From Ostreococcus lucimarinus (lineage: Eukaryota): 64,000 bases of DNA. Below, in pieces: positions 24,923 through 56,063 of the stretch (positions are counted from its first letter, which is position 1; each line of letters opens with the position of its first letter). The stretch lies in assembly GCA_000092065.1 (NCBI GenBank), contig CP000601.1; one strand, written 5' to 3'. Below the pieces are notes generated by a model, which ran no database searches, was not told the DNA's origin, and saw nothing but the letters and a program-made list of their open reading frames with translations. The position numbers and the translations under genes were made by a program.

Positions 24923-26524
24923 TCATTTGTAGAATTTCTTCTTGGCTGGGGATTGCGCGGCGCCGGTAAAACCGGCGTACGAACTAAGCTGCGGGATTTC
25001 CACTCCATCAGCCTTGGCTTTTTCCATGGCGGCGATCCTGCGCGGATCCCATTCGTCTAGCACGGCGAGCGGCAAATCGTTCGGGTGTCGCGCCACCACG
25101 TACCCCCAAACTTCGCTACGAGGCAACTTTTTGTGCCACGCCAACACATCGCGCTGCATCGACCCGAAACAGCAGTACCAGAACGACAGAAACGGTGAGG
25201 TACGTTCACCCAGGGCGCCTATGTGCGTTCGCTTGCGACGCGCCTTGGCGCTTTCTTCGCTTTGACCTTTGGCGGCGCGCGCCTTCACCATCGCCTTGGG
25301 TGTCCAATAATAATAACGCTTCTTCGGCGCGATGTAGAATGGCAAGATTTGCGCTCGAGCGGCACCACCACCGTGACGCTTGATACCATCGTCATTCTCC
25401 TCGACGTCATCTTCGTTGTTTTCCTCGTCTTTGCGCTGAAGCTCGAGCGATTTCGCCTTTTCCTTCCCTCGCGAGCCGCCCGTGAGCAACGCGGGCAGGT
25501 AGTAATCCTTGTGAATGACGTACGAGGGCAAGAGCAGCATGTACGGACGGCCGTGTGCAGCAAGATTTTCTGCCGCAAACGTCACGCACTTCTCTATGTG
25601 GTCAGCAGAGTACGGTGGATTTGTCAGGAAGACGTCGTGCTCGGGCACGCGCCCCTCTTCGATGACTTTGTAAAAATCTTCGTTGCGATTGATGACGTTC
25701 GTGAATCCAATCAAAGCCAAGTTCCTTCGCGTACCTCCGGCGCAGTAGTAAGGGTCATAAATCACCAGGTCGGCGGGCGTTTTATTCAAGCGCCCGCACG
25801 CCGCCTTTAAGAAATTCGCTACGTTTTCGTGCGCCTCAGGCGACGTCTCGCAGTGGTCGTCCGCGTCCGTCTCGAACGGATGCTCTACCTCCGCCGGCGC
25901 CTTAAATTCTTCCGCTAACTTCGCGTTCCCCTTAAAGATCGCCGGTATCGTCTCCCCACGCTCGTTCAAAACCGCCCCTTTCTCTTTTCTCTCATCCTTT
26001 TTCTTCTCCGCCGGTTTCCAATACGTATAGCTCTGCGTCGCGTCGTCCCACGTCCCGATCCTGACGTGTTCCCCATTCGCCGTACGCTCCGTGCTCGAGT
26101 ACACGGCTTTAGACTTTTTATCCACGAGCACTAATTCGTCGTTCATCACCACGCCCTCGACGTTAAACGTGCCGTGGAACACCTTGTCTTCGTCGTCGGC
26201 GTTCGCCGCGTCGCCGCCGCCTTCCGTCTCGTCCGTTCCTCGCGGTCGTCCCTCTTCCAGTTTACGCCGTTTTGCGCGCGCTTGCTTGGCCTTGCGCTTC
26301 TTTTCTCGCGCGCGTTCGAGCTTGGACGCGCGATTCGCGCTCACGCGCGCGTCGGCGTCGGTTTTATCGTCGCCGCCGCCGCCGCTCGTCGTCGGCGGCG
26401 ACGCGTCGGCGGCGGCGCTCGCGTCGTCGGCGCCCTCGGCGAGCTCGCGCGCGCGCACGCGAGCGATGAAATCGTCCTCATCGCTCGAGCCTTCGTCGAA
26501 GCGGGAGAGATCGGGCGCGGTCAT
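24923..26524 (-). CDS. putative N6-adenine/N-methyltransferase-like protein (NPPY motif) with acidic/K-rich N-terminal region
   Basis: DLVIYDPYYCAGGTRRNLALIGF (motif I-like) followed by DVFLTNPPYSADHIE (catalytic NPPY, motif IV of amino-methyltransferases). Exact family not resolved. Confidence 0.5.
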   Translation of the reverse strand: MTAPDLSRFDEGSSDEDDFIARVRARELAEGADDASAAADASPPTTSGGGGDDKTDADARVSANRASKLERAREKKRKAKQARAKRRKLEEGRPRGTDETEGGGDAANADDEDKVFHGTFNVEGVVMNDELVLVDKKSKAVYSSTERTANGEHVRIGTWDDATQSYTYWKPAEKKKDERKEKGAVLNERGETIPAIFKGNAKLAEEFKAPAEVEHPFETDADDHCETSPEAHENVANFLKAACGRLNKTPADLVIYDPYYCAGGTRRNLALIGFTNVINRNEDFYKVIEEGRVPEHDVFLTNPPYSADHIEKCVTFAAENLAAHGRPYMLLLPSYVIHKDYYLPALLTGGSRGKEKAKSLELQRKDEENNEDDVEENDDGIKRHGGGAARAQILPFYIAPKKRYYYWTPKAMVKARAAKGQSEESAKARRKRTHIGALGERTSPFLSFWYCCFGSMQRDVLAWHKKLPRSEVWGYVVARHPNDLPLAVLDEWDPRRIAAMEKAKADGVEIPQLSSYAGFTGAAQSPAKKKFYK

Positions 26525-32592: not shown

Positions 32593-34317
32593 CTAATCTC
32601 GCGTTCGGAAGCGACGCACAAAATTCGATCCCATCCTTCGAATTCTATGACTGAGACTGAAAGAGCGCGTGCTTAAAACGACTGCGGTAGAATCAGGCGC
32701 GTTCACGTCCGTTGAAACCGCAAAGGCGGTGGCAGATCGGTTCACCGTCGTCTCGGCTCGTCCACTGCTGATGAGCTCAACGTTGTTCGCCGCATACTGC
32801 CAATCTAATTCGTCCTTGATCGAATCGAGCGCTTCTCGCGAAATATTTGCCGCAGCAAATTTAGATGACAGGCTGTTTGGCGCGCGTTTTGTCGCCGGCG
32901 CGGCTGACAGCGCTCTTTTCATGAAGTTAGCGTCGAAATCGAGAACGCTTCTCGGCGCGTTCGCGCGCGGTTCCCCAGACGAACCGAGCGAGACAATCCA
33001 AGGATGCTCTAACATTTCTTCCGGCTTCAATCTCGCGCTCGGGTCGAGAACGAGGCATTTGCGGATGAAATCGGCGCCGTGTTCGCTGACGAATGCAGGG
33101 ATCTTGAACGAACCTTGGAGAATCATATCGTACGCTTGCTGTCGACTCGTCGACTGAAACGGCGGAAACCCGACGACGAGCTCAAACGCCAAAGCGCCGA
33201 TGGCCCATAAATCCACAGCCTTGCCGTACCCAGCGCGATTCAATCGGAGGTATCGTTCTCGAAACTCTTTATCGCAGCGTACAACCTCCGGCGCCATGTA
33301 ATCCGTCGTTCCCAAACGCCCGAGCGGTTTGAACCACTCCAAATGTAACGCAAAGCCGAAATCCGTCAGCTTCGCTCTGCCGTCATCGGTGAGTACGACA
33401 TTTTCAGGCTTGATATCTCGGTGTATGACGTTCATCGCGTGCATGTGCGCGACGGCTTTGATGACCCATTTCATAACTCCCGTCACTGCTCGGCTTTCAC
33501 TAAACTTTCCTCCAACTCGCGCCAAAGCGTTGAAAACGTCGCCCCGGTTGTGAAGCTCGTGTATTAAATAATAGTTCCCAGTCGAAGTGTCGATGAACGA
33601 ACCAAAAAATCCCACGATGGCCGAGTGTTCCATGCTATGATGCACCGCAATTTCGTGCGCAATCTGTTCGTACACGTGCAGTTTCAACTTTGCCTTGATG
33701 TAGCACTTCAGCGCCACTTCAAAGTTCATCCTGCGATAAAACGCCTTGTATACCACGGAATATCGCCCGCGACCGATGACGTTGACGAGCTGAAAATCCT
33801 CCAGGCGAAATCTCCACCCGAACATCGACGCATTCAACACGTCCTCTGGTTTCGCCATTCCCAGCGGGTCGGGATCTGCGTCCCATTCCTCCGGGACCGC
33901 CCCCAACGCGCTCCTAAACGTCCCGCTCTGCGAGCTCGACGCGCTCGTCTCCGACAACCGTCCCGACCTCGTCGCATCGTCGTCCCGGTCGTCGTCCGCA
34001 TCGAGCGAACTCCCTATCCACGTTCCATCCTCTTTTCCATTCGCTCTCAGCTCACTCGGCGTCAACCTCCGACTCGCGCGCGCGTCGCCGATCAGCGTCG
34101 CCGTCCAGGCGAGCTTTGCGCCCTCCGACGCCTCCTGTCCCGCCTGCCCGAGACCCTCGCGAGAGCTCTGCGCTGACGATCGCGCGGATAGCGCGCTCAT
34201 CGGACTCGTCGCGCGGTCGTCCGCGCCCTTTCCCGCGTCCGTCGGCGTCGATTCCGTCGTCGTGTCGAAACTGCGGCGCGGCGTCCGAACGAGCGCGGCG
34301 TCGTCGTCGAGCGACAT
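32593..34317 (-). CDS. Ser/Thr protein kinase (Aurora/CAMK-like catalytic domain) with S/D-rich N-terminal region
   Basis: IGRGRYSVVYKA...VALK, HRDIKPENVVL, DFGFA, GTTDYMAPE, DLWAIG. C-terminal extension after HPWI. Confidence 0.85.
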   Translation of the reverse strand: MSLDDDAALVRTPRRSFDTTTESTPTDAGKGADDRATSPMSALSARSSAQSSREGLGQAGQEASEGAKLAWTATLIGDARASRRLTPSELRANGKEDGTWIGSSLDADDDRDDDATRSGRLSETSASSSQSGTFRSALGAVPEEWDADPDPLGMAKPEDVLNASMFGWRFRLEDFQLVNVIGRGRYSVVYKAFYRRMNFEVALKCYIKAKLKLHVYEQIAHEIAVHHSMEHSAIVGFFGSFIDTSTGNYYLIHELHNRGDVFNALARVGGKFSESRAVTGVMKWVIKAVAHMHAMNVIHRDIKPENVVLTDDGRAKLTDFGFALHLEWFKPLGRLGTTDYMAPEVVRCDKEFRERYLRLNRAGYGKAVDLWAIGALAFELVVGFPPFQSTSRQQAYDMILQGSFKIPAFVSEHGADFIRKCLVLDPSARLKPEEMLEHPWIVSLGSSGEPRANAPRSVLDFDANFMKRALSAAPATKRAPNSLSSKFAAANISREALDSIKDELDWQYAANNVELISSGRAETTVNRSATAFAVSTDVNAPDSTAVVLSTRSFSLSHRIRRMGSNFVRRFRTRD

Positions 34318-45130: not shown

Positions 45131-47347
45131 TCACGACGTGTCCATCTTCACCGCCGCGTTGACTTTGATTTTATCGATGAAGTGAATTGTTTCGGCTTTG
45201 GAGACCAACAAGTTGCATGACGTGCGACCGCGCCAGCACGCGATGGCGAGGTCCGCCTTGCTGACGTTGATGGCGGCCAGATCTTCATCGCGAGGAACGA
45301 GAATGCAGCATCCCAAAGTGAGATCGAGCAAGGCTTTTTTGGTTTCGGCGCAAGAGATGACGGCGCGTTGCGGCGCCTCTGCGCTGTACTCAAACGCCAA
45401 CGTGCGACGTTCAAGGATGGCTTTAAAGTCGTCAAAAGTCGGGCGAATGATGCGCTTTCTCACGAACGGGAACATCATCGGTATTCCGTCTTGCGTGAGA
45501 CGGAAATCACACATCGCACCAGAAGTTTCTTCTTGTTCTTTGACTTCATCCTTGATTTCCTGGCGCTCGAACGCCTTGAGCCCGCACGACGTCACGCGAA
45601 GACTTTCGTTGACGTCGCACGCTAAGTACTGGCGCAAGGAGTCGGTGATGGTGTACACACGCTTCGGTCGTGAAGTGTCCGCAGTGCGTGTGACACAATT
45701 TTTGTGTAACGCAATGTCATCGCTTTCGATACCGTAGACACTGTAGATGCTATTGATCACCTTCGGATCGTTCACCGGAAGCACAGGATCGATGCCGAGC
45801 CATCGACTGCCCCCGTTCGGACCCGTCGCGCCTCTGTGTGGGAGCAAATACTCGCCTTTGTCGTCGACTTCCGGAGGTATAGACGCAGTCTGACCCTTGC
45901 GGGCCAACGTGATCACCTCATGTGACATCTCGATCTCGTTCTTCGCGTTCACGTTGAGCGAAAGGCGAACACGCTCCTTCACAGTTTGCTTCTTTGCGTT
46001 CACGTCTTCTTTGATCTCCATGGGCTTAACTTTCTGGAATACGGCGACAAAGAATCCACCAGTGTCTTGATGATGAGGCAAAAGTCGCAGACATCGCTCC
46101 AACGGCAGTTTCTTCGTCTCTTCGTCGGAGAACATCGTCTCGCAGAGCTTGAACATTTGCTCCTCGCCTCGAAAGCTTGGGTGATAGCCAAACTTATCCC
46201 ACACTTGCCAATCGCGCAATCCAGGGCTACGCTTCAAGTCTGGCAATTCGTCACTCACATCGAGAAGCTCCAAAGCACCATCGCATTCCTTCAACAACGC
46301 CGCCACGACAGCTTCGTTTTCAATCGGATTCAGCGAGCACGTGCTGTACACGAGACGACCGCCCACCTTGAGGAGCTGAGCACCGCGAGCAGCGATTCTA
46401 AGCTGTAAGGTATGCAAACCGTTACCATTACCAGGAGTCCATCTGTTCCAGATATCCGGTGCCTTGCGCATCGTCGCGTCGCCCGAGCACGGTACGTCGC
46501 ACAGGATGGCGTCAAAGTCGAAGAGTTCACCCTTTGGGCCTTTGATGATGGGATAGTTTTGCGCTTCATGATTGGTCACGAGTAACGTCGGTGAGTTCGC
46601 TCGCTTCGTTTGATGCGTCAGTAAGTTGCAACGCTTCAAATCGACGTCATTGGCGACGACGATTCCGGTGGGAAGCTTGGTGTTGCCGTCAAAATCACCG
46701 TGCATGCGTTCCAAAATCTGAAACGTCTTGCTTCCCGGCGACGCGCACATGTCCAAAATTCGATGATGCGGTTGCGCATCCAAGAAAAACGGAGGAATCA
46801 TCGATACTGCCTCTTGCCTAGAGATCGACCCGAGCTCGTTAGCGTTCTTGATGAAGTCGAAAATTCCTTGCAGCGCCGGCAACCGTCGCAACTGCGCTCG
46901 CGTATAACTACACTGCCACGCCAATCGCTCGGGATACCACGCCAACGGCTTCGGCGGCGGTAATTCATTTTGTTCCTCATCTTTCAATTCCTCTTTGAGC
47001 AATTCCGCGAACAGTGTCCCCTCCAATTGGTCTCGCATATCCGTCGCGAACTTTCCACTTCCATTGATTCTAAACGTCATCGGCAACGGCGACCGCATGC
47101 AGTCCAAAAACGTCTCCCACTCGCTCTCCGGGACGATATTCTGGGCTTTGTAGTACGTCTCAAACGCTTTGTTCGTCTTCTGGATGTCGTGATAGCCGTC
47201 GTGCGCGTTCCCTCGTTCACCTCGCGCATCCATGCCGCCGCCGCCGTCGCGTTTTTGTCGCTTGAAGTCGCGCGCGAAGGCGCCGCTTTGAGGACCGTTC
47301 CCGCGACCACCGCCTCCTCGACGCTTGTTAAATCGACCCCGACCCAT
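45131..47347 (-). CDS. NSUN2: tRNA (cytosine-5)-methyltransferase NSUN2/Trm4 (NOL1/NOP2/Sun family)
   Basis: ILDMCASPGSKT, FDAILCDVPCSGDATMRK (motif IV, catalytic Cys), LVYSTCSLNPIENEAVV (motif VI Cys). 738 aa with an R/G-rich N-terminus. Confidence 0.9.
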   Translation of the reverse strand: MGRGRFNKRRGGGGRGNGPQSGAFARDFKRQKRDGGGGMDARGERGNAHDGYHDIQKTNKAFETYYKAQNIVPESEWETFLDCMRSPLPMTFRINGSGKFATDMRDQLEGTLFAELLKEELKDEEQNELPPPKPLAWYPERLAWQCSYTRAQLRRLPALQGIFDFIKNANELGSISRQEAVSMIPPFFLDAQPHHRILDMCASPGSKTFQILERMHGDFDGNTKLPTGIVVANDVDLKRCNLLTHQTKRANSPTLLVTNHEAQNYPIIKGPKGELFDFDAILCDVPCSGDATMRKAPDIWNRWTPGNGNGLHTLQLRIAARGAQLLKVGGRLVYSTCSLNPIENEAVVAALLKECDGALELLDVSDELPDLKRSPGLRDWQVWDKFGYHPSFRGEEQMFKLCETMFSDEETKKLPLERCLRLLPHHQDTGGFFVAVFQKVKPMEIKEDVNAKKQTVKERVRLSLNVNAKNEIEMSHEVITLARKGQTASIPPEVDDKGEYLLPHRGATGPNGGSRWLGIDPVLPVNDPKVINSIYSVYGIESDDIALHKNCVTRTADTSRPKRVYTITDSLRQYLACDVNESLRVTSCGLKAFERQEIKDEVKEQEETSGAMCDFRLTQDGIPMMFPFVRKRIIRPTFDDFKAILERRTLAFEYSAEAPQRAVISCAETKKALLDLTLGCCILVPRDEDLAAINVSKADLAIACWRGRTSCNLLVSKAETIHFIDKIKVNAAVKMDTS

Positions 47348-47479: not shown

Positions 47480-49030
47480 CTAAGATAATATGAATACAAT
47501 GAACAGAGACAATGCAGTGCCGAGGAATATACCGGCGACGAGGGCAAAGCTGAGGACGACGCCCTCGGCTTGACGTTTTGAGAGCGGCGCGCGGCTGGCG
47601 CCGTGCATCATGGCGACGCTCGCGAGCCAACCATTCGTCACCGCGAGGGCGGATATGAAGAGGAAGGGGAAGAAGTCGGACGCAAACACGGTGGGCACGC
47701 GCCAGTTCGGCGTGGTGACGTTGCAGGCGGCGAGAAACGGGATGAAGGCGAATCGAAGCGTCGCCGCGCGCCGCAACGACGCGCCTCTCGGCGGCGTCTT
47801 GGGATACATTCCAGCCAGATGTCGGCCGAGAAAATCGCCCAAGTTGAAGAGTAAGAATAATACCGGCGACCAAAACGCTCCCATTGCGCCGTGCGAGCTC
47901 TCGATTGAGCTCGTGATTGCCGGAAACGCGCAGAGGCTGGCGATAAACGTCAACGCGACGGCGAGTCTATAATCGCGACTCTCGTCGCCGAAATCCTCCA
48001 CGCCTGTGGAAGCTCTCAACGGCGCGCCCTCGACGTCGCTGTCGTACTCATCGACGTCATCATCCCGTAGGAGCGCGTTCATCTCCGACCGGCGCCCATC
48101 TCGATGCCGCTCGACCCCAGTGAGCTCTTCGAATGCGGGCGTCTTGTCCAATCGCGCCGCCGTCGCCGCGCAACCCAGCACCACCGCCGCGGCGACGTAA
48201 AAATACGCCTGTGCGCCTTTCGCGGACGACGAGGACGAAACTGATCCCCCACCATACGCAGTCGTCGCCAGCGCCACCAAAGAAACCACCACCCCACTCA
48301 CCGCCTGCCCGCTCATCGCGCCCTGCGCGAACTCGGGCGGCAACCGACTCGCGAGCGCGAACCCCCCGGACTGCGCCACCGCCGTCGCCAATCCGACCAC
48401 CACGATCACCCCTAGCGTCTGCGCGAATACGACGTCCATTTTCACCCGTTCCACGCCCGCGACGACCCCACACGTCCATATCCCCACCGCCGCGATTCCC
48501 AGCGCGCTCGCCGTCGCTCGCGAACCCGTCGCCGCGCCGCGCGCGTCCCCATATTTCACCAACCCCGCGCATCCGATCAGATTGCTCAGCGCGTACGCGT
48601 TCGCGAACGTCCCTTCGAAATTCGCCGCGAAGAACGACCCATCGTTCGCGCCATCGTTCGCGAACCGTCGCGCGAAGTACGCGCGCTCGGTGATGAAGAC
48701 GTTCCACGGGAACAGCGTCCCCACGCCCACGGCGACGAAGCGCGCGTACAGCGCGCGCGCCGGCGTCATCGAGGCGCGCGTCGCTCGAGACGCGTTCGCG
48801 TCGTCGCCCGCGCGTCGGCGTCGCGCGTCGGCGTCGGCGTCGACATCGTTCGCGTCGTCGTCGTCGTTCGCGTCATCGACCGTCGGGACCGACGCGTCGG
48901 CGGCGGCGGCGGCGATCGCGTCGCGCGCGCCGCGCTCGGAGTCCCCGCTCGCGCGCGTCGCCGGCGTCGCGCGCATCGCGCCCGCGGCGAGGCGCGCTCT
49001 GCGGCGTCGCGCCATTCGTCGACGCATCAT
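47480..49030 (-). CDS. ENT: equilibrative nucleoside transporter (ENT/SLC29 family)
   Basis: VGVGTLFPWNVFITERAYF (ENT TM1 motif), FAQGAMSGQAVSGVVVS, and an 11-TM-like hydropathy. The acidic/R-rich N-terminal 87 aa may be a 5' extension artefact; alternative start MTPARALYA at about 48769. Confidence 0.8.
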   Translation of the reverse strand: MMRRRMARRRRARLAAGAMRATPATRASGDSERGARDAIAAAAADASVPTVDDANDDDDANDVDADADARRRRAGDDANASRATRASMTPARALYARFVAVGVGTLFPWNVFITERAYFARRFANDGANDGSFFAANFEGTFANAYALSNLIGCAGLVKYGDARGAATGSRATASALGIAAVGIWTCGVVAGVERVKMDVVFAQTLGVIVVVGLATAVAQSGGFALASRLPPEFAQGAMSGQAVSGVVVSLVALATTAYGGGSVSSSSSAKGAQAYFYVAAAVVLGCAATAARLDKTPAFEELTGVERHRDGRRSEMNALLRDDDVDEYDSDVEGAPLRASTGVEDFGDESRDYRLAVALTFIASLCAFPAITSSIESSHGAMGAFWSPVLFLLFNLGDFLGRHLAGMYPKTPPRGASLRRAATLRFAFIPFLAACNVTTPNWRVPTVFASDFFPFLFISALAVTNGWLASVAMMHGASRAPLSKRQAEGVVLSFALVAGIFLGTALSLFIVFILS

Positions 49031-49041
49031 CGATCGAGACG

Positions 49042-49494
49042 ATGACGTTCGCGACGACGACGCGCGCGACGACGACGACGGCGCGATGCGCGACGACGCG
49101 ACGCGCGACGACGCGACGCGCGCGCGGCGTGTTCGCGGCCGCGCGGTCGAGCGCGACGCGCGCGCGCGCGACGACGAAGACGATGACGACGACGCGAAGG
49201 CTGGAATCGCCGCGCGTCGGGAAGACCACGCGCACGCGCGCGACGCCCGCGGACGATGAAGGCGACGTGCCGTTCGGGTACACGCGCGCGGACGTGATGC
49301 TGATCGGGACCGGGGTCACGGGCGCGGGATTCGCGGCGTACTACGGGTTGCAATCGTTCGCGGGGATGGATTCGACGAAGGCGGGCAACGCGGTGCAGTT
49401 GACGTTCGTGCTCGGATTGACGCTCGCGTGGGTGGGGTCGTACGTCATGCGAGTGTTCAATAAGGACATGACTTACGCGAAGCAGTTGAAGGAT
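49042..49494 (+). CDS. small plastid-type membrane protein (DUF3007-like), exon 1
   Basis: T/R/A-rich presequence, then PFGYTRADVMLIGTGVTGAGFAAYYGL ... VQLTFVLGLTLAWVGSYVMRVFNKDMTYAKQLKD. The exon ends at donor GAT|GTGCGT (intron starts 49495). Confidence 0.55.
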
Positions 49495-49603
49495 GTGCGT
49501 GCGAAGCGAACGAGGCGAGAGCGCGAGACGAAACGCGAAGGAGAAAGAAAACGCGAACCGAAGACTGACGCTCAGACGTTTCGTTTCGACGATGGTTAAA
49601 CAG
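49495..49603 (+). other. inferred 109-bp GT-AG intron (phase 0) in the DUF3007-like gene
   Basis: Donor GTGCGT at 49495; acceptor TTAAACAG| ends 49603. Splicing switches from the junk-like read-through ...VRAKRTRRERETKREGERKRE to the well-formed tail YENAVMQKRLEEMPASELEKMMDELDEK. Confidence 0.5.
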
Positions 49604-49690
49604 TACGAAAACGCGGTGATGCAAAAGCGTTTGGAAGAAATGCCGGCGAGCGAGCTGGAGAAGATGATGGACGAATTGGACGAGAAGTGA
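49604..49690 (+). CDS. DUF3007-like protein, exon 2 (C-terminal amphipathic helix)
   Basis: YENAVMQKRLEEMPASELEKMMDELDEK* is in frame with exon 1 after intron removal. Confidence 0.5.
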   Translation, partial: YENAVMQKRLEEMPASELEKMMDELDEK

Positions 49691-49731: not shown

Positions 49732-50742
49732 TTATCCTCTCGCCCTGGCGCGACGCGCCTCCTCTTCCCCGGCTAAACGATCGCTCACGCTCACCATCCC
49801 ACGACGGTCGAGGAACGGATACTCGCCCACCCAGACGTTAAGGAACGGAAAATACGCCTCGCGAACGGCTTGAAACGTGTAAAAGTACGGGTCGTCTGAT
49901 GTCACGATGAGCTCGACGTCGTCGCCTACGTTGATATCCGCGTACTCCGCTTTTAAAGGAACTTTCAGCGGTACTCGCGCCCCGGATCTATCTCCGACGA
50001 CTAGGTTAAACATCCAATCTACGCTCGACGTCCCGCGCGTCTCCACGGGCTCGACTGAGATGACTCTGGCGCGCCACAGGCCCGCGTATTTAGCGCTTCG
50101 CACCTTTGAGTTACGTCGCGCCGCTAACGCCACGGGTGCCCACAAAAAAAACGTGCTCGCGGGCACGGCGAGCGCCGGCGCCGCATTCGCGGTCAACACC
50201 GTCGTCAACAGCGACAACCCCACGCGTTGAAACGCGGTATCGTTATCCCCCCAAAAGTACCCGTATTGCTCCCCCGTCGCCGCGATGGGCAGCACGCGTT
50301 CGTAATCCCGCTGCGTCAGCACCAGCACGTTCGGTCGCGCTCCACCTCGATCCCGTCGCTCGTTTCGTCGCTCTCGCGGTTCCCTTCGCGCCGCTCGCCG
50401 TTGTCGCGTCGACGCCGACGCCGTCGCCCCTCGCGCGCGTCGCGCCTCGTCCTCGTCCAGCCACCGCGCGTCCTCGGCCGCGCGTCCCGACGCGCTCGCG
50501 CTCGCGTCGTCGTCGTCGTCGTCGTCCATCATAGCGTCGTCCGCGTCCGCACCGCGTCGAGCGACGCGAAGCGCGCGTCCGCGGCGCGTCGTCGAGCCGC
50601 CGCCGGAATTGAATGCCCGCGCGATTCCCTCGCGACTCCTTCGCCGCGCGCGCGCCGCGCCGTTCGTCGCCGCGCGCGTCGTCGCGCGCGATGTCCACCG
50701 CGTCGTCGGCGCGCGCGCGCGCGCGTCGACCGACGCGGACAT
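49732..50742 (-). CDS. hypothetical protein with acidic/presequence-like N-terminus and conserved-looking C-terminal domain
   Basis: C-terminal 200 aa is non-repetitive (NVLVLTQRDYERVLPIAATGEQYGYFWGDND...PFLNVWVGEYPFLDRRGMVSVSDRL). Domain not identified. Confidence 0.4.
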   Translation of the reverse strand: MSASVDARARAPTTRWTSRATTRAATNGAARARRRSREGIARAFNSGGGSTTRRGRALRVARRGADADDAMMDDDDDDDASASASGRAAEDARWLDEDEARRARGATASASTRQRRAARREPRERRNERRDRGGARPNVLVLTQRDYERVLPIAATGEQYGYFWGDNDTAFQRVGLSLLTTVLTANAAPALAVPASTFFLWAPVALAARRNSKVRSAKYAGLWRARVISVEPVETRGTSSVDWMFNLVVGDRSGARVPLKVPLKAEYADINVGDDVELIVTSDDPYFYTFQAVREAYFPFLNVWVGEYPFLDRRGMVSVSDRLAGEEEARRARARG

Positions 50743-55799: not shown

Positions 55800-56063
55800 G
55801 TGCGTGAAGAACGACGCGAGCGACGCGACGCGACGCGACGCGAGACGACGCGACGCGCGAGACGACGCGACGAGGGCGATCGCGACGGTCGTCGGAAAGA
55901 TGTCCGGAAACCATCCGCGAGACGCGGCGACGACCGGAGACGCGACGACGGCGACGGGAGAGCGTTGGGACGGGCGCGAAAGATGGGAGAGCGCGCGACG
56001 GTGCGAATGGAGGCGCGCGAGGACGAAGGACTGACGACGCGCGCGGTTTCGGGGACGACGCAG

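Follow-up and report, generated by a model that had tools for sequence, protein, structure and literature searches.

Evidence for a canonical spliceosomal intron of restricted distribution in the DUF3007 (CPLD38/DAC) gene of Ostreococcus lucimarinus

Analysis of a stretch of Ostreococcus lucimarinus DNA 64,000 nucleotides (nt) long (contig CP000601.1; here called the window) indicated that positions 49495 to 49603 are a canonical U2-type O. lucimarinus intron in a nuclear gene for a DUF3007 protein, the ortholog of CPLD38/DAC. We put the probability of this reading at about 0.97, and we infer that the segment is excised in vivo. The spliced protein, when started at an internal methionine, is identical to an existing reference protein; thus, the junction at 49494/49604 is already known from the reference annotation, and finding it again in the DNA was a correct rediscovery. 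Two points are mildly new: the distribution of the intron, which is lineage specific, and a reference start codon that was probably placed too far downstream. The parts of the gene are as follows.

49042-49494, plus strand: exon 1 of the DUF3007 gene, 453 nt, encoding a presequence and two hydrophobic segments, up to ...NKDMTYAKQLKD; from the open reading frame (ORF) and a Pfam PF11460 match that begins at residue 81.
49495-49603, plus strand: very probable U2-type spliceosomal intron, 109 nt, phase 0, GT-AG; from splice-pair scoring, the empty site in relatives, and the RefSeq junction.
49495-49501, plus strand: 5' splice site GTGCGTG, identical to the published consensus for O. lucimarinus introns outside chromosome 2 (PMC2483917) and kept in 3/3 intron-bearing lineages.
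[quoted passage not shown]
49568, plus strand: presumed branch A, 35 nt upstream of the last intron base.
49601-49603, plus strand: 3' splice site CAG, kept in 3/3 intron-bearing lineages.
49604-49690, plus strand: exon 2, YENAVMQKRLEEMPASELEKMMDELDEK and a TGA stop, encoding most of the family's conserved acidic C-terminal helix; from Pfam profile positions 79 to 95 and the C termini of homologs.

The intron begins with GT (49495-49496) and ends with AG (49602-49603). The GAT codon for the D of KQLKD occupies 49492-49494 and is followed immediately by GTGCGT (49495-49500), and exon 2 opens with TAC GAA AAC directly after the CAG. Removing 49495-49603 joins ...KQLKD to YENAVMQKRLEE..., so that codon 151 (D) is followed by Y in phase 0. 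Because 109 leaves a remainder of 1 on division by 3, the C-terminal helix lies in another frame, and this is the frame switch seen in the DNA. A first-pass annotation had proposed this ORF, donor, and acceptor, with a length of 109 bp and phase 0, and its coordinates were all correct to the base. Without splicing, the ORF runs from 49042 to 49599 on the plus strand, encodes 185 amino acids (aa), and continues beyond KQLKD as VRAKRTRRERETKREGERKREPKTDAQTFRFDDG, the low-complexity tail that had been described. In the mechanism that we propose, the spliceosome would recognize the strict signals of the species, namely GTGCGTG, GACTGACG with a branch A that precedes the acceptor by 35 nt, and CAG; removal of the 109 nt would then give an mRNA encoding a 179-aa precursor (132 aa from the annotated internal start).

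The spliced and unspliced products were compared with their homologs. Against the Pfam DUF3007 profile (PF11460; gathering cutoff, 25 bits), the spliced product scored 117.9 bits and passed over the full profile (positions 2 to 95 of 96), versus 83.6 bits and positions 2 to 78 for the unspliced product. We retrieved 284 homologs, and KQLKDYE[DEN].VM.KRLEE is uninterrupted in each one that we examined. Those examined included O. tauri XP_003082649.2, proteins from Bathycoccus and Micromonas, EukProt/MMETSP transcriptome proteins, and proteins from Marchantia, Ceratodon, and Amborella; the spliced product aligned without gaps to all of them, from prasinophytes through land plants. The homologs thus have the KQLKDYE..A...RLEE-type end that the first-pass annotation had predicted. 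Arg/Glu-rich tails after KQLKD were found only in metagenome ORF calls from the same or sister lineages (P0001, P0002, P0076, and P0105), and these tails differ among themselves. Because the homologs are unbroken at KQLKDYE and Pfam coverage reaches 95/96 only after splicing, the comparison supports the intron interpretation.

These results also bear on the alternative that there is no splicing, so that the 185-aa read-through ORF is the real product and the downstream frame is a chance likeness or a decaying remnant. In keeping with it, the ORF stays open for 34 extra codons, and prokaryote-style gene callers report the read-through on many metagenome contigs. However, the tail is not conserved between lineages in sequence, length, or stop position. 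The third-position GC content, 0.90 in exon 1 and 0.76 in exon 2, is down to 0.51 in the read-through stretch, and the Pfam profile ends there at 78/96. Apart from the metagenome ORF calls just mentioned, no homolog has such an end, whereas exon 2 is 90 to 97% identical across lineages, has no indels or other gaps, and is biased to synonymous change. We therefore give the absence of splicing almost no credence.

The insert exists in three diverged versions: one in the window, L001, and L002 (109 nt), one in L003 to L005 (109 nt, with internal indels), and one in L006 (132 nt). All three retain GTGCGTG, GACTGACG, and CAG. Between the window and L006, the exons are 92 to 93% identical and align without gaps, while the intron is 65% identical with 31 gap columns. 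Between the window and L003, the domain encoded in exon 1 has 7 synonymous and 0 nonsynonymous codon differences. The 132 nt of the L006 intron are a multiple of three, but they include two in-frame stops. Since the read-through reaches exon 2 in no lineage, the conservation of exon 2 can be understood only if this exon is joined by splicing. The interior of the L006 intron (467-537) holds a tandem array with 12- and 18-nt periods (CGAAGGCGAACG, about 4.8 copies), and slippage in this array accounts for the difference in length between 109 and 132 nt.

An error of sequencing or assembly, or a pseudogene, could also lie behind a frame switch, and an indel error would indeed resemble a frame break in a short gene. 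In this case, however, repair requires that 109 nt be removed, not one base. The same structure was present on more than 200 independent contigs from many samples, two more lineages have a homologous insert (109 nt in one, 132 nt in the other) that retains the splice signals, and the substitutions in the exons are mainly synonymous. The unspliced ORF (P0121, one residue different from that of the window) was found on 228 contigs, and a separate 32-aa ORF of exon 2, "MVKQYENAV..." (window positions 49592-49690; cluster P0278), on 208 contigs; with each on more than 200 independent contigs, there is no assembly error. The comparative data thus effectively refute a frameshift or pseudogene, which we rate as wildly improbable. 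Two scans of the metagenome contigs, one with a 53-nt degenerate pattern and one with a 29-nt lineage-specific pattern, gave 0 matches to the spliced junction in a collection that may hold no cDNA and for which there was no positive control. The same two scans found no intronless allele of the O. lucimarinus type.

The splice signals were evaluated against chance and against the published consensus. Among expressed sequence tag (EST)-confirmed O. lucimarinus introns outside chromosome 2, the 5' consensus is the atypical GTGCGTG, ACTGAC is present in 87%, and the extended motif GACTGACG is present in 66.5% (Irimia and Roy 2008, PMC2483917). The donor and branch motif of 49495-49603 are identical to these strings. 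Like the canonical non-chromosome-2 introns (PMC2483917), the intron is of the GT-AG type with GTGCGTG at its 5' end and GACTGACG near its 3' end, and nothing substantial sets it apart from them. When 201 GT/GC-AG pairs were scored against an intronless relative, 49495/49603 was the single best, and it was the only one of the 201 that aligned without gaps to intronless relatives. The hexamer GTGCGT is not enriched in the window (54 sites versus 63.5 expected), and for this reason we dropped it as stand-alone evidence. The full combination of GTGCGTG, GACTGACG, and AG occurs 3 times in the window versus 0.245 times expected under a second-order Markov model. The other intron candidates in the window, two with strict signals and one found with slightly relaxed signals, are as follows.

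55800-56063, plus strand: strict-signal intron candidate with GTGCGTG and GACTGACG, directly upstream of the UDP-glucose dehydrogenase (UGDH) ORF.
40509-40317, minus strand: strict-signal intron candidate with GTGCGTG and GACTGACG.
3574-3339, minus strand: slightly relaxed intron candidate with a GTGCGT[GC] donor and GACTGACG.

The intron at 49495-49603 shares a length class of about 100 to 260 nt with the other canonical introns of the window. The distance from the branch point to the AG is 22 to 29 nt in the other three candidates, so that the 35 nt at 49495-49603 is the longest of the four and places this intron at the long end of their range. The UGDH ORF at 56087-57457 matches its Pfam profile from profile position 12. 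The first-pass annotation had claimed that the same donor is used by introns in a kinase gene and in the UGDH gene. This holds for UGDH, where GTGCGTG and GACTGACG are both present at 55800-56063. For the kinase, the strict signals gave no confirmation: the supposed donor, GTGCGTC at 32619-32614 on the minus strand, has no ACTGAC within 500 nt and was not confirmed as canonical. That site lies near the 3' end of a Ser/Thr kinase ORF (32593-34317, minus strand), and the sequence after it is AT rich and resembles an untranslated region. We also considered a structured or self-splicing element, or an RNA hosted by the intron at 49495-49603, and rejected these: the fold z score was 0.01, and Rfam gave 0 matches at an E value of ≤1.

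Translation of the spliced sequence from the ATG at 49183-49185 gives a 132-aa protein identical to XP_001421107.1 and XP_001422847.1 (ABO99400.1 and ABP01206.1). The record of XP_001421107.1 reads "predicted protein [Ostreococcus lucimarinus CCE9901]," and the UniRef name is "Transmembrane protein"; the representative of its 90% cluster is a fragment of 71 aa. The junction and the C terminus of the reference models are the same as ours. Because the RefSeq model is a prediction from 2007, this agreement is not fully independent experimental proof. The models differ in that they start at 49183 and not at 49042, and the 179-aa spliced protein from 49042 had no exact match among protein records.

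On the sequence comparisons, 49042 is probably the better start, as the first-pass annotation had it, and the RefSeq model is probably truncated at its N terminus by 47 residues. In the sister lineage L003 (P0002), Thr is found at the position of the annotated Met, and the next Met comes only within the first membrane segment, which leaves the upstream ATG as the sole workable start in L003. In addition, the variants P0124 and P0130 have in-frame deletions of 21 and 5 aa, respectively, upstream of the annotated Met, and their ORFs stay open. These deletions are weaker evidence for the start because the region consists of tandem repeats with periods that are multiples of three. The presequence region at 49050-49197 contains CGACG-type tandem repeats with periods of 3, 15, 18, and 39, which account for in-frame length polymorphism among the environmental variants P0124, P0126, and P0130.

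The first-pass annotation called the product a DUF3007-like plastid protein, and this was correct in that the family is CPLD38/DAC. DUF3007 corresponds to Chlamydomonas CPLD38, Cre01.g000850 (PMC8448359), and to Arabidopsis DAC, At3g17930. This protein of the thylakoids has a conserved acidic coiled coil at its C terminus and is predicted to contain two transmembrane helices (PMC3591612). When CPLD38/DAC is lost, the level of cytochrome b6f falls by about 85%; PetD is an interaction partner of DAC, and the cyanobacterial gene adjoins ndhL (PMC3591612, PMC9279372). That the accumulation of cytochrome b6f requires CPLD38/DAC is known from Chlamydomonas and Arabidopsis mutants only (PMC3591612, PMC9279372); family membership suggests that the Ostreococcus protein has a role related to cytochrome b6f. 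The O. lucimarinus protein is presumably targeted to the plastid.

Like CPLD38/DAC, which has orthologs across the green lineage, the O. lucimarinus protein has a full-length PF11460 match, and its architecture runs from a presequence through two membrane segments to an acidic helix at the C terminus. About 75 residues rich in Thr, Arg, and Ala form an N-terminal extension, the length of which varies between relatives. Two transmembrane helices had been noted in the first reading. The second segment, residues 117 to 139, is clearly hydrophobic and passes a Kyte-Doolittle cutoff of 1.3, but the glycine-rich first segment, VMLIGTGVTGAGFAAYYGL, does not, and the description of the protein as having two helices is taken from the family literature. 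We counted the protein as having the two transmembrane segments and acidic coiled coil of DUF3007/CPLD38/DAC, the first segment being below the cutoff. In the peptide encoded by exon 2, 9 of the 28 residues are acidic; in place of this acidic helix, the unspliced tail is net basic, with 13 basic and 8 acidic residues among 34.

In gene structure, O. lucimarinus has a single intron, located at LKD/YEN (here and below, a slash marks the site of the intron), and has none of the introns found at the land plant and Micromonas pusilla sites. Exact reconstruction of coding sequences placed the Marchantia and Amborella introns at K/[IV]PFGYTR, GLE/[AF]FG, and VMQ/KRLE, all in phase 0, and an intron of M. 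pusilla CCMP1545 at K/VPFGYTR, also in phase 0. None of the outgroups sampled has an intron at LKD/YEN. O. tauri, other Ostreococcus-type lineages, Bathycoccus, and Micromonas lack the intron; in L007 and L008, the empty site reads exactly AAGGAT/TACGAA. On long genomic contigs, the ORF is uninterrupted in at least 6 other Ostreococcus-type lineages, including O. tauri, and genomic contigs gave the same result for three Bathycoccus-type lineages and for Micromonas-type lineages such as P0078 and P0079. Apparent introns at the last codon of P0074 and P0104 in the exon mapping were disregarded as spurious. The M. pusilla intron is 285 nt long (L010 762-1046; compare L009 789-1087 and L011 2480-3457) and has the exact position and phase of the Marchantia/Amborella intron. 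The K/VPFGYTR intron is probably ancient; M. pusilla would have kept it, and Ostreococcus, Bathycoccus, and other Micromonas-type lineages would have lost it.

In a neighbor-joining tree of the 100-aa domain, which carries no support values, the three lineages that carry the intron group together as a single clade, and this clade is nested among Ostreococcus-type lineages without the intron. The most parsimonious history is a single recent gain on the stem of the O. lucimarinus-type clade, and we consider this probable, with room left for other histories. A little more cautiously, the gained intron seems to have brought with it the 7-nt donor and 8-nt branch consensus in exact form and to have entered a site that has no intron in any other green-lineage species sampled. 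Alternatively, the intron may be ancestral, with independent losses in O. tauri, other Ostreococcus, Bathycoccus, and Micromonas, or it may be the plant VMQ/KRLE intron displaced by sliding. Mamiellales are known for massive intron loss, the land plant phase 0 intron is just 7 codons downstream, and the tree is the short one described above. Yet the carriers are one nested clade and no sampled outgroup has the intron, so that one gain stands against at least 3 to 4 exact losses; nor, to our knowledge, is the sliding of an intron by 21 nt a well-supported mechanism. We consider an ancestral intron fairly unlikely.

A recent gain, if it occurred, raises the question of the source. The intron could be a copy of a mobile introner-like element, or an existing intron that was transposed, which would explain its perfect consensus signals, and an apparently lineage-specific gain that bears both strict motifs is what such an origin would give. 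The IE-C introners of Micromonas RCC299 have the same GACTGACG branch motif (Verhelst 2013, PMC3879977), which makes a mobile origin conceivable but unsupported. The intron is also like Micromonas introners (PMC3879977; Simmons 2015, PMC4540971) in its presence or absence between close relatives. It is unlike them in having no repeat copies in the 64-kb window, no target-site duplication, and an interior made of simple repeats. With blastn-short, the donor heptamer and low-complexity 10- to 19-mers were the only matches elsewhere in the window, the best secondary match being 19 nt of low complexity, and a comparison with the gene's own exons gave no similarity to the flanking exons and no exon duplication. 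The boundaries, AAGGAT/GTGCGTG and AAACAG/TACGAA, have no common direct repeat, and the interior is a low-complexity repeat of the GCGAA type that evolves by slippage. Weighing these points, we regard a mobile or transposed origin as quite unlikely.

The order of genes in this part of the window is NSUN2 methyltransferase (minus strand), ENT nucleoside transporter (minus), DUF3007 (plus), a gene of unknown function (minus), MaoC dehydratase (plus), and LMBR1 (minus). This order around DUF3007 is conserved on metagenome contigs of related Ostreococcus lineages, and the adjacency of ENT and DUF3007 is also found in Micromonas pusilla. The protein encoded by the long ORF at 24926-26524 (minus strand) is identical to XP_001420969.1 of Ostreococcus lucimarinus CCE9901, and the CCE9901 models XP_001420959.1 and XP_001420960.1 belong to the clusters of the ENT transporter and NSUN2 ORFs.

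If the longest ORFs are used, the divergent ENT ORF (47480-49030, minus strand; 516 aa) starts 11 nt from the DUF3007 start. It matches Pfam Nucleoside_tran from residue 207 onward, and the CCE9901 protein of its cluster is only 319 aa long. ENT therefore probably starts well downstream, or the CCE9901 model is imperfect too. The convergent neighbor is a 336-aa ORF (49732-50742, minus strand) without a Pfam match. Only 41 nt separate its stop codon from that of DUF3007, and its cluster includes a CCE9901 model of 198 aa, XP_001420958.1, labeled "partial." Every matched O. lucimarinus protein (for example, those of 24926-26524, 45131-47347, 47480-49030, and 49042-49690) has two GenBank/RefSeq accessions on two contigs, one in the ABO99xxx and the other in the ABP01xxx series, and the pairs run in opposite order. 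From these paired accessions, the CCE9901 assembly seems to contain the region in two copies, one inverted relative to the other.

Our results show that a true intron of the O. lucimarinus genome can be recovered by reading the raw sequence; beyond its distribution, the value of the finding is mainly for the quality of annotation. If the reference start is indeed 47 codons late, much of the targeting presequence is lost from the model, which could mislead predictions of localization for a GreenCut/PlastidCut protein. Metagenome catalogues list two pseudo-proteins from this one gene, a systematic miscall of a picoeukaryote gene by prokaryote-style gene finders and a small caution about eukaryotic gene calls from picoplankton in metagenome protein catalogues. 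The intron itself is a candidate recent gain that could be used in studies of intron evolution, since it is present or absent among Ostreococcus species at a position common to no outgroup. If that history is true, it would be a tidy natural case for studying how new introns come about, for instance by transposition of one that already exists, where a genome is poor in introns and its splice signals are very strict.
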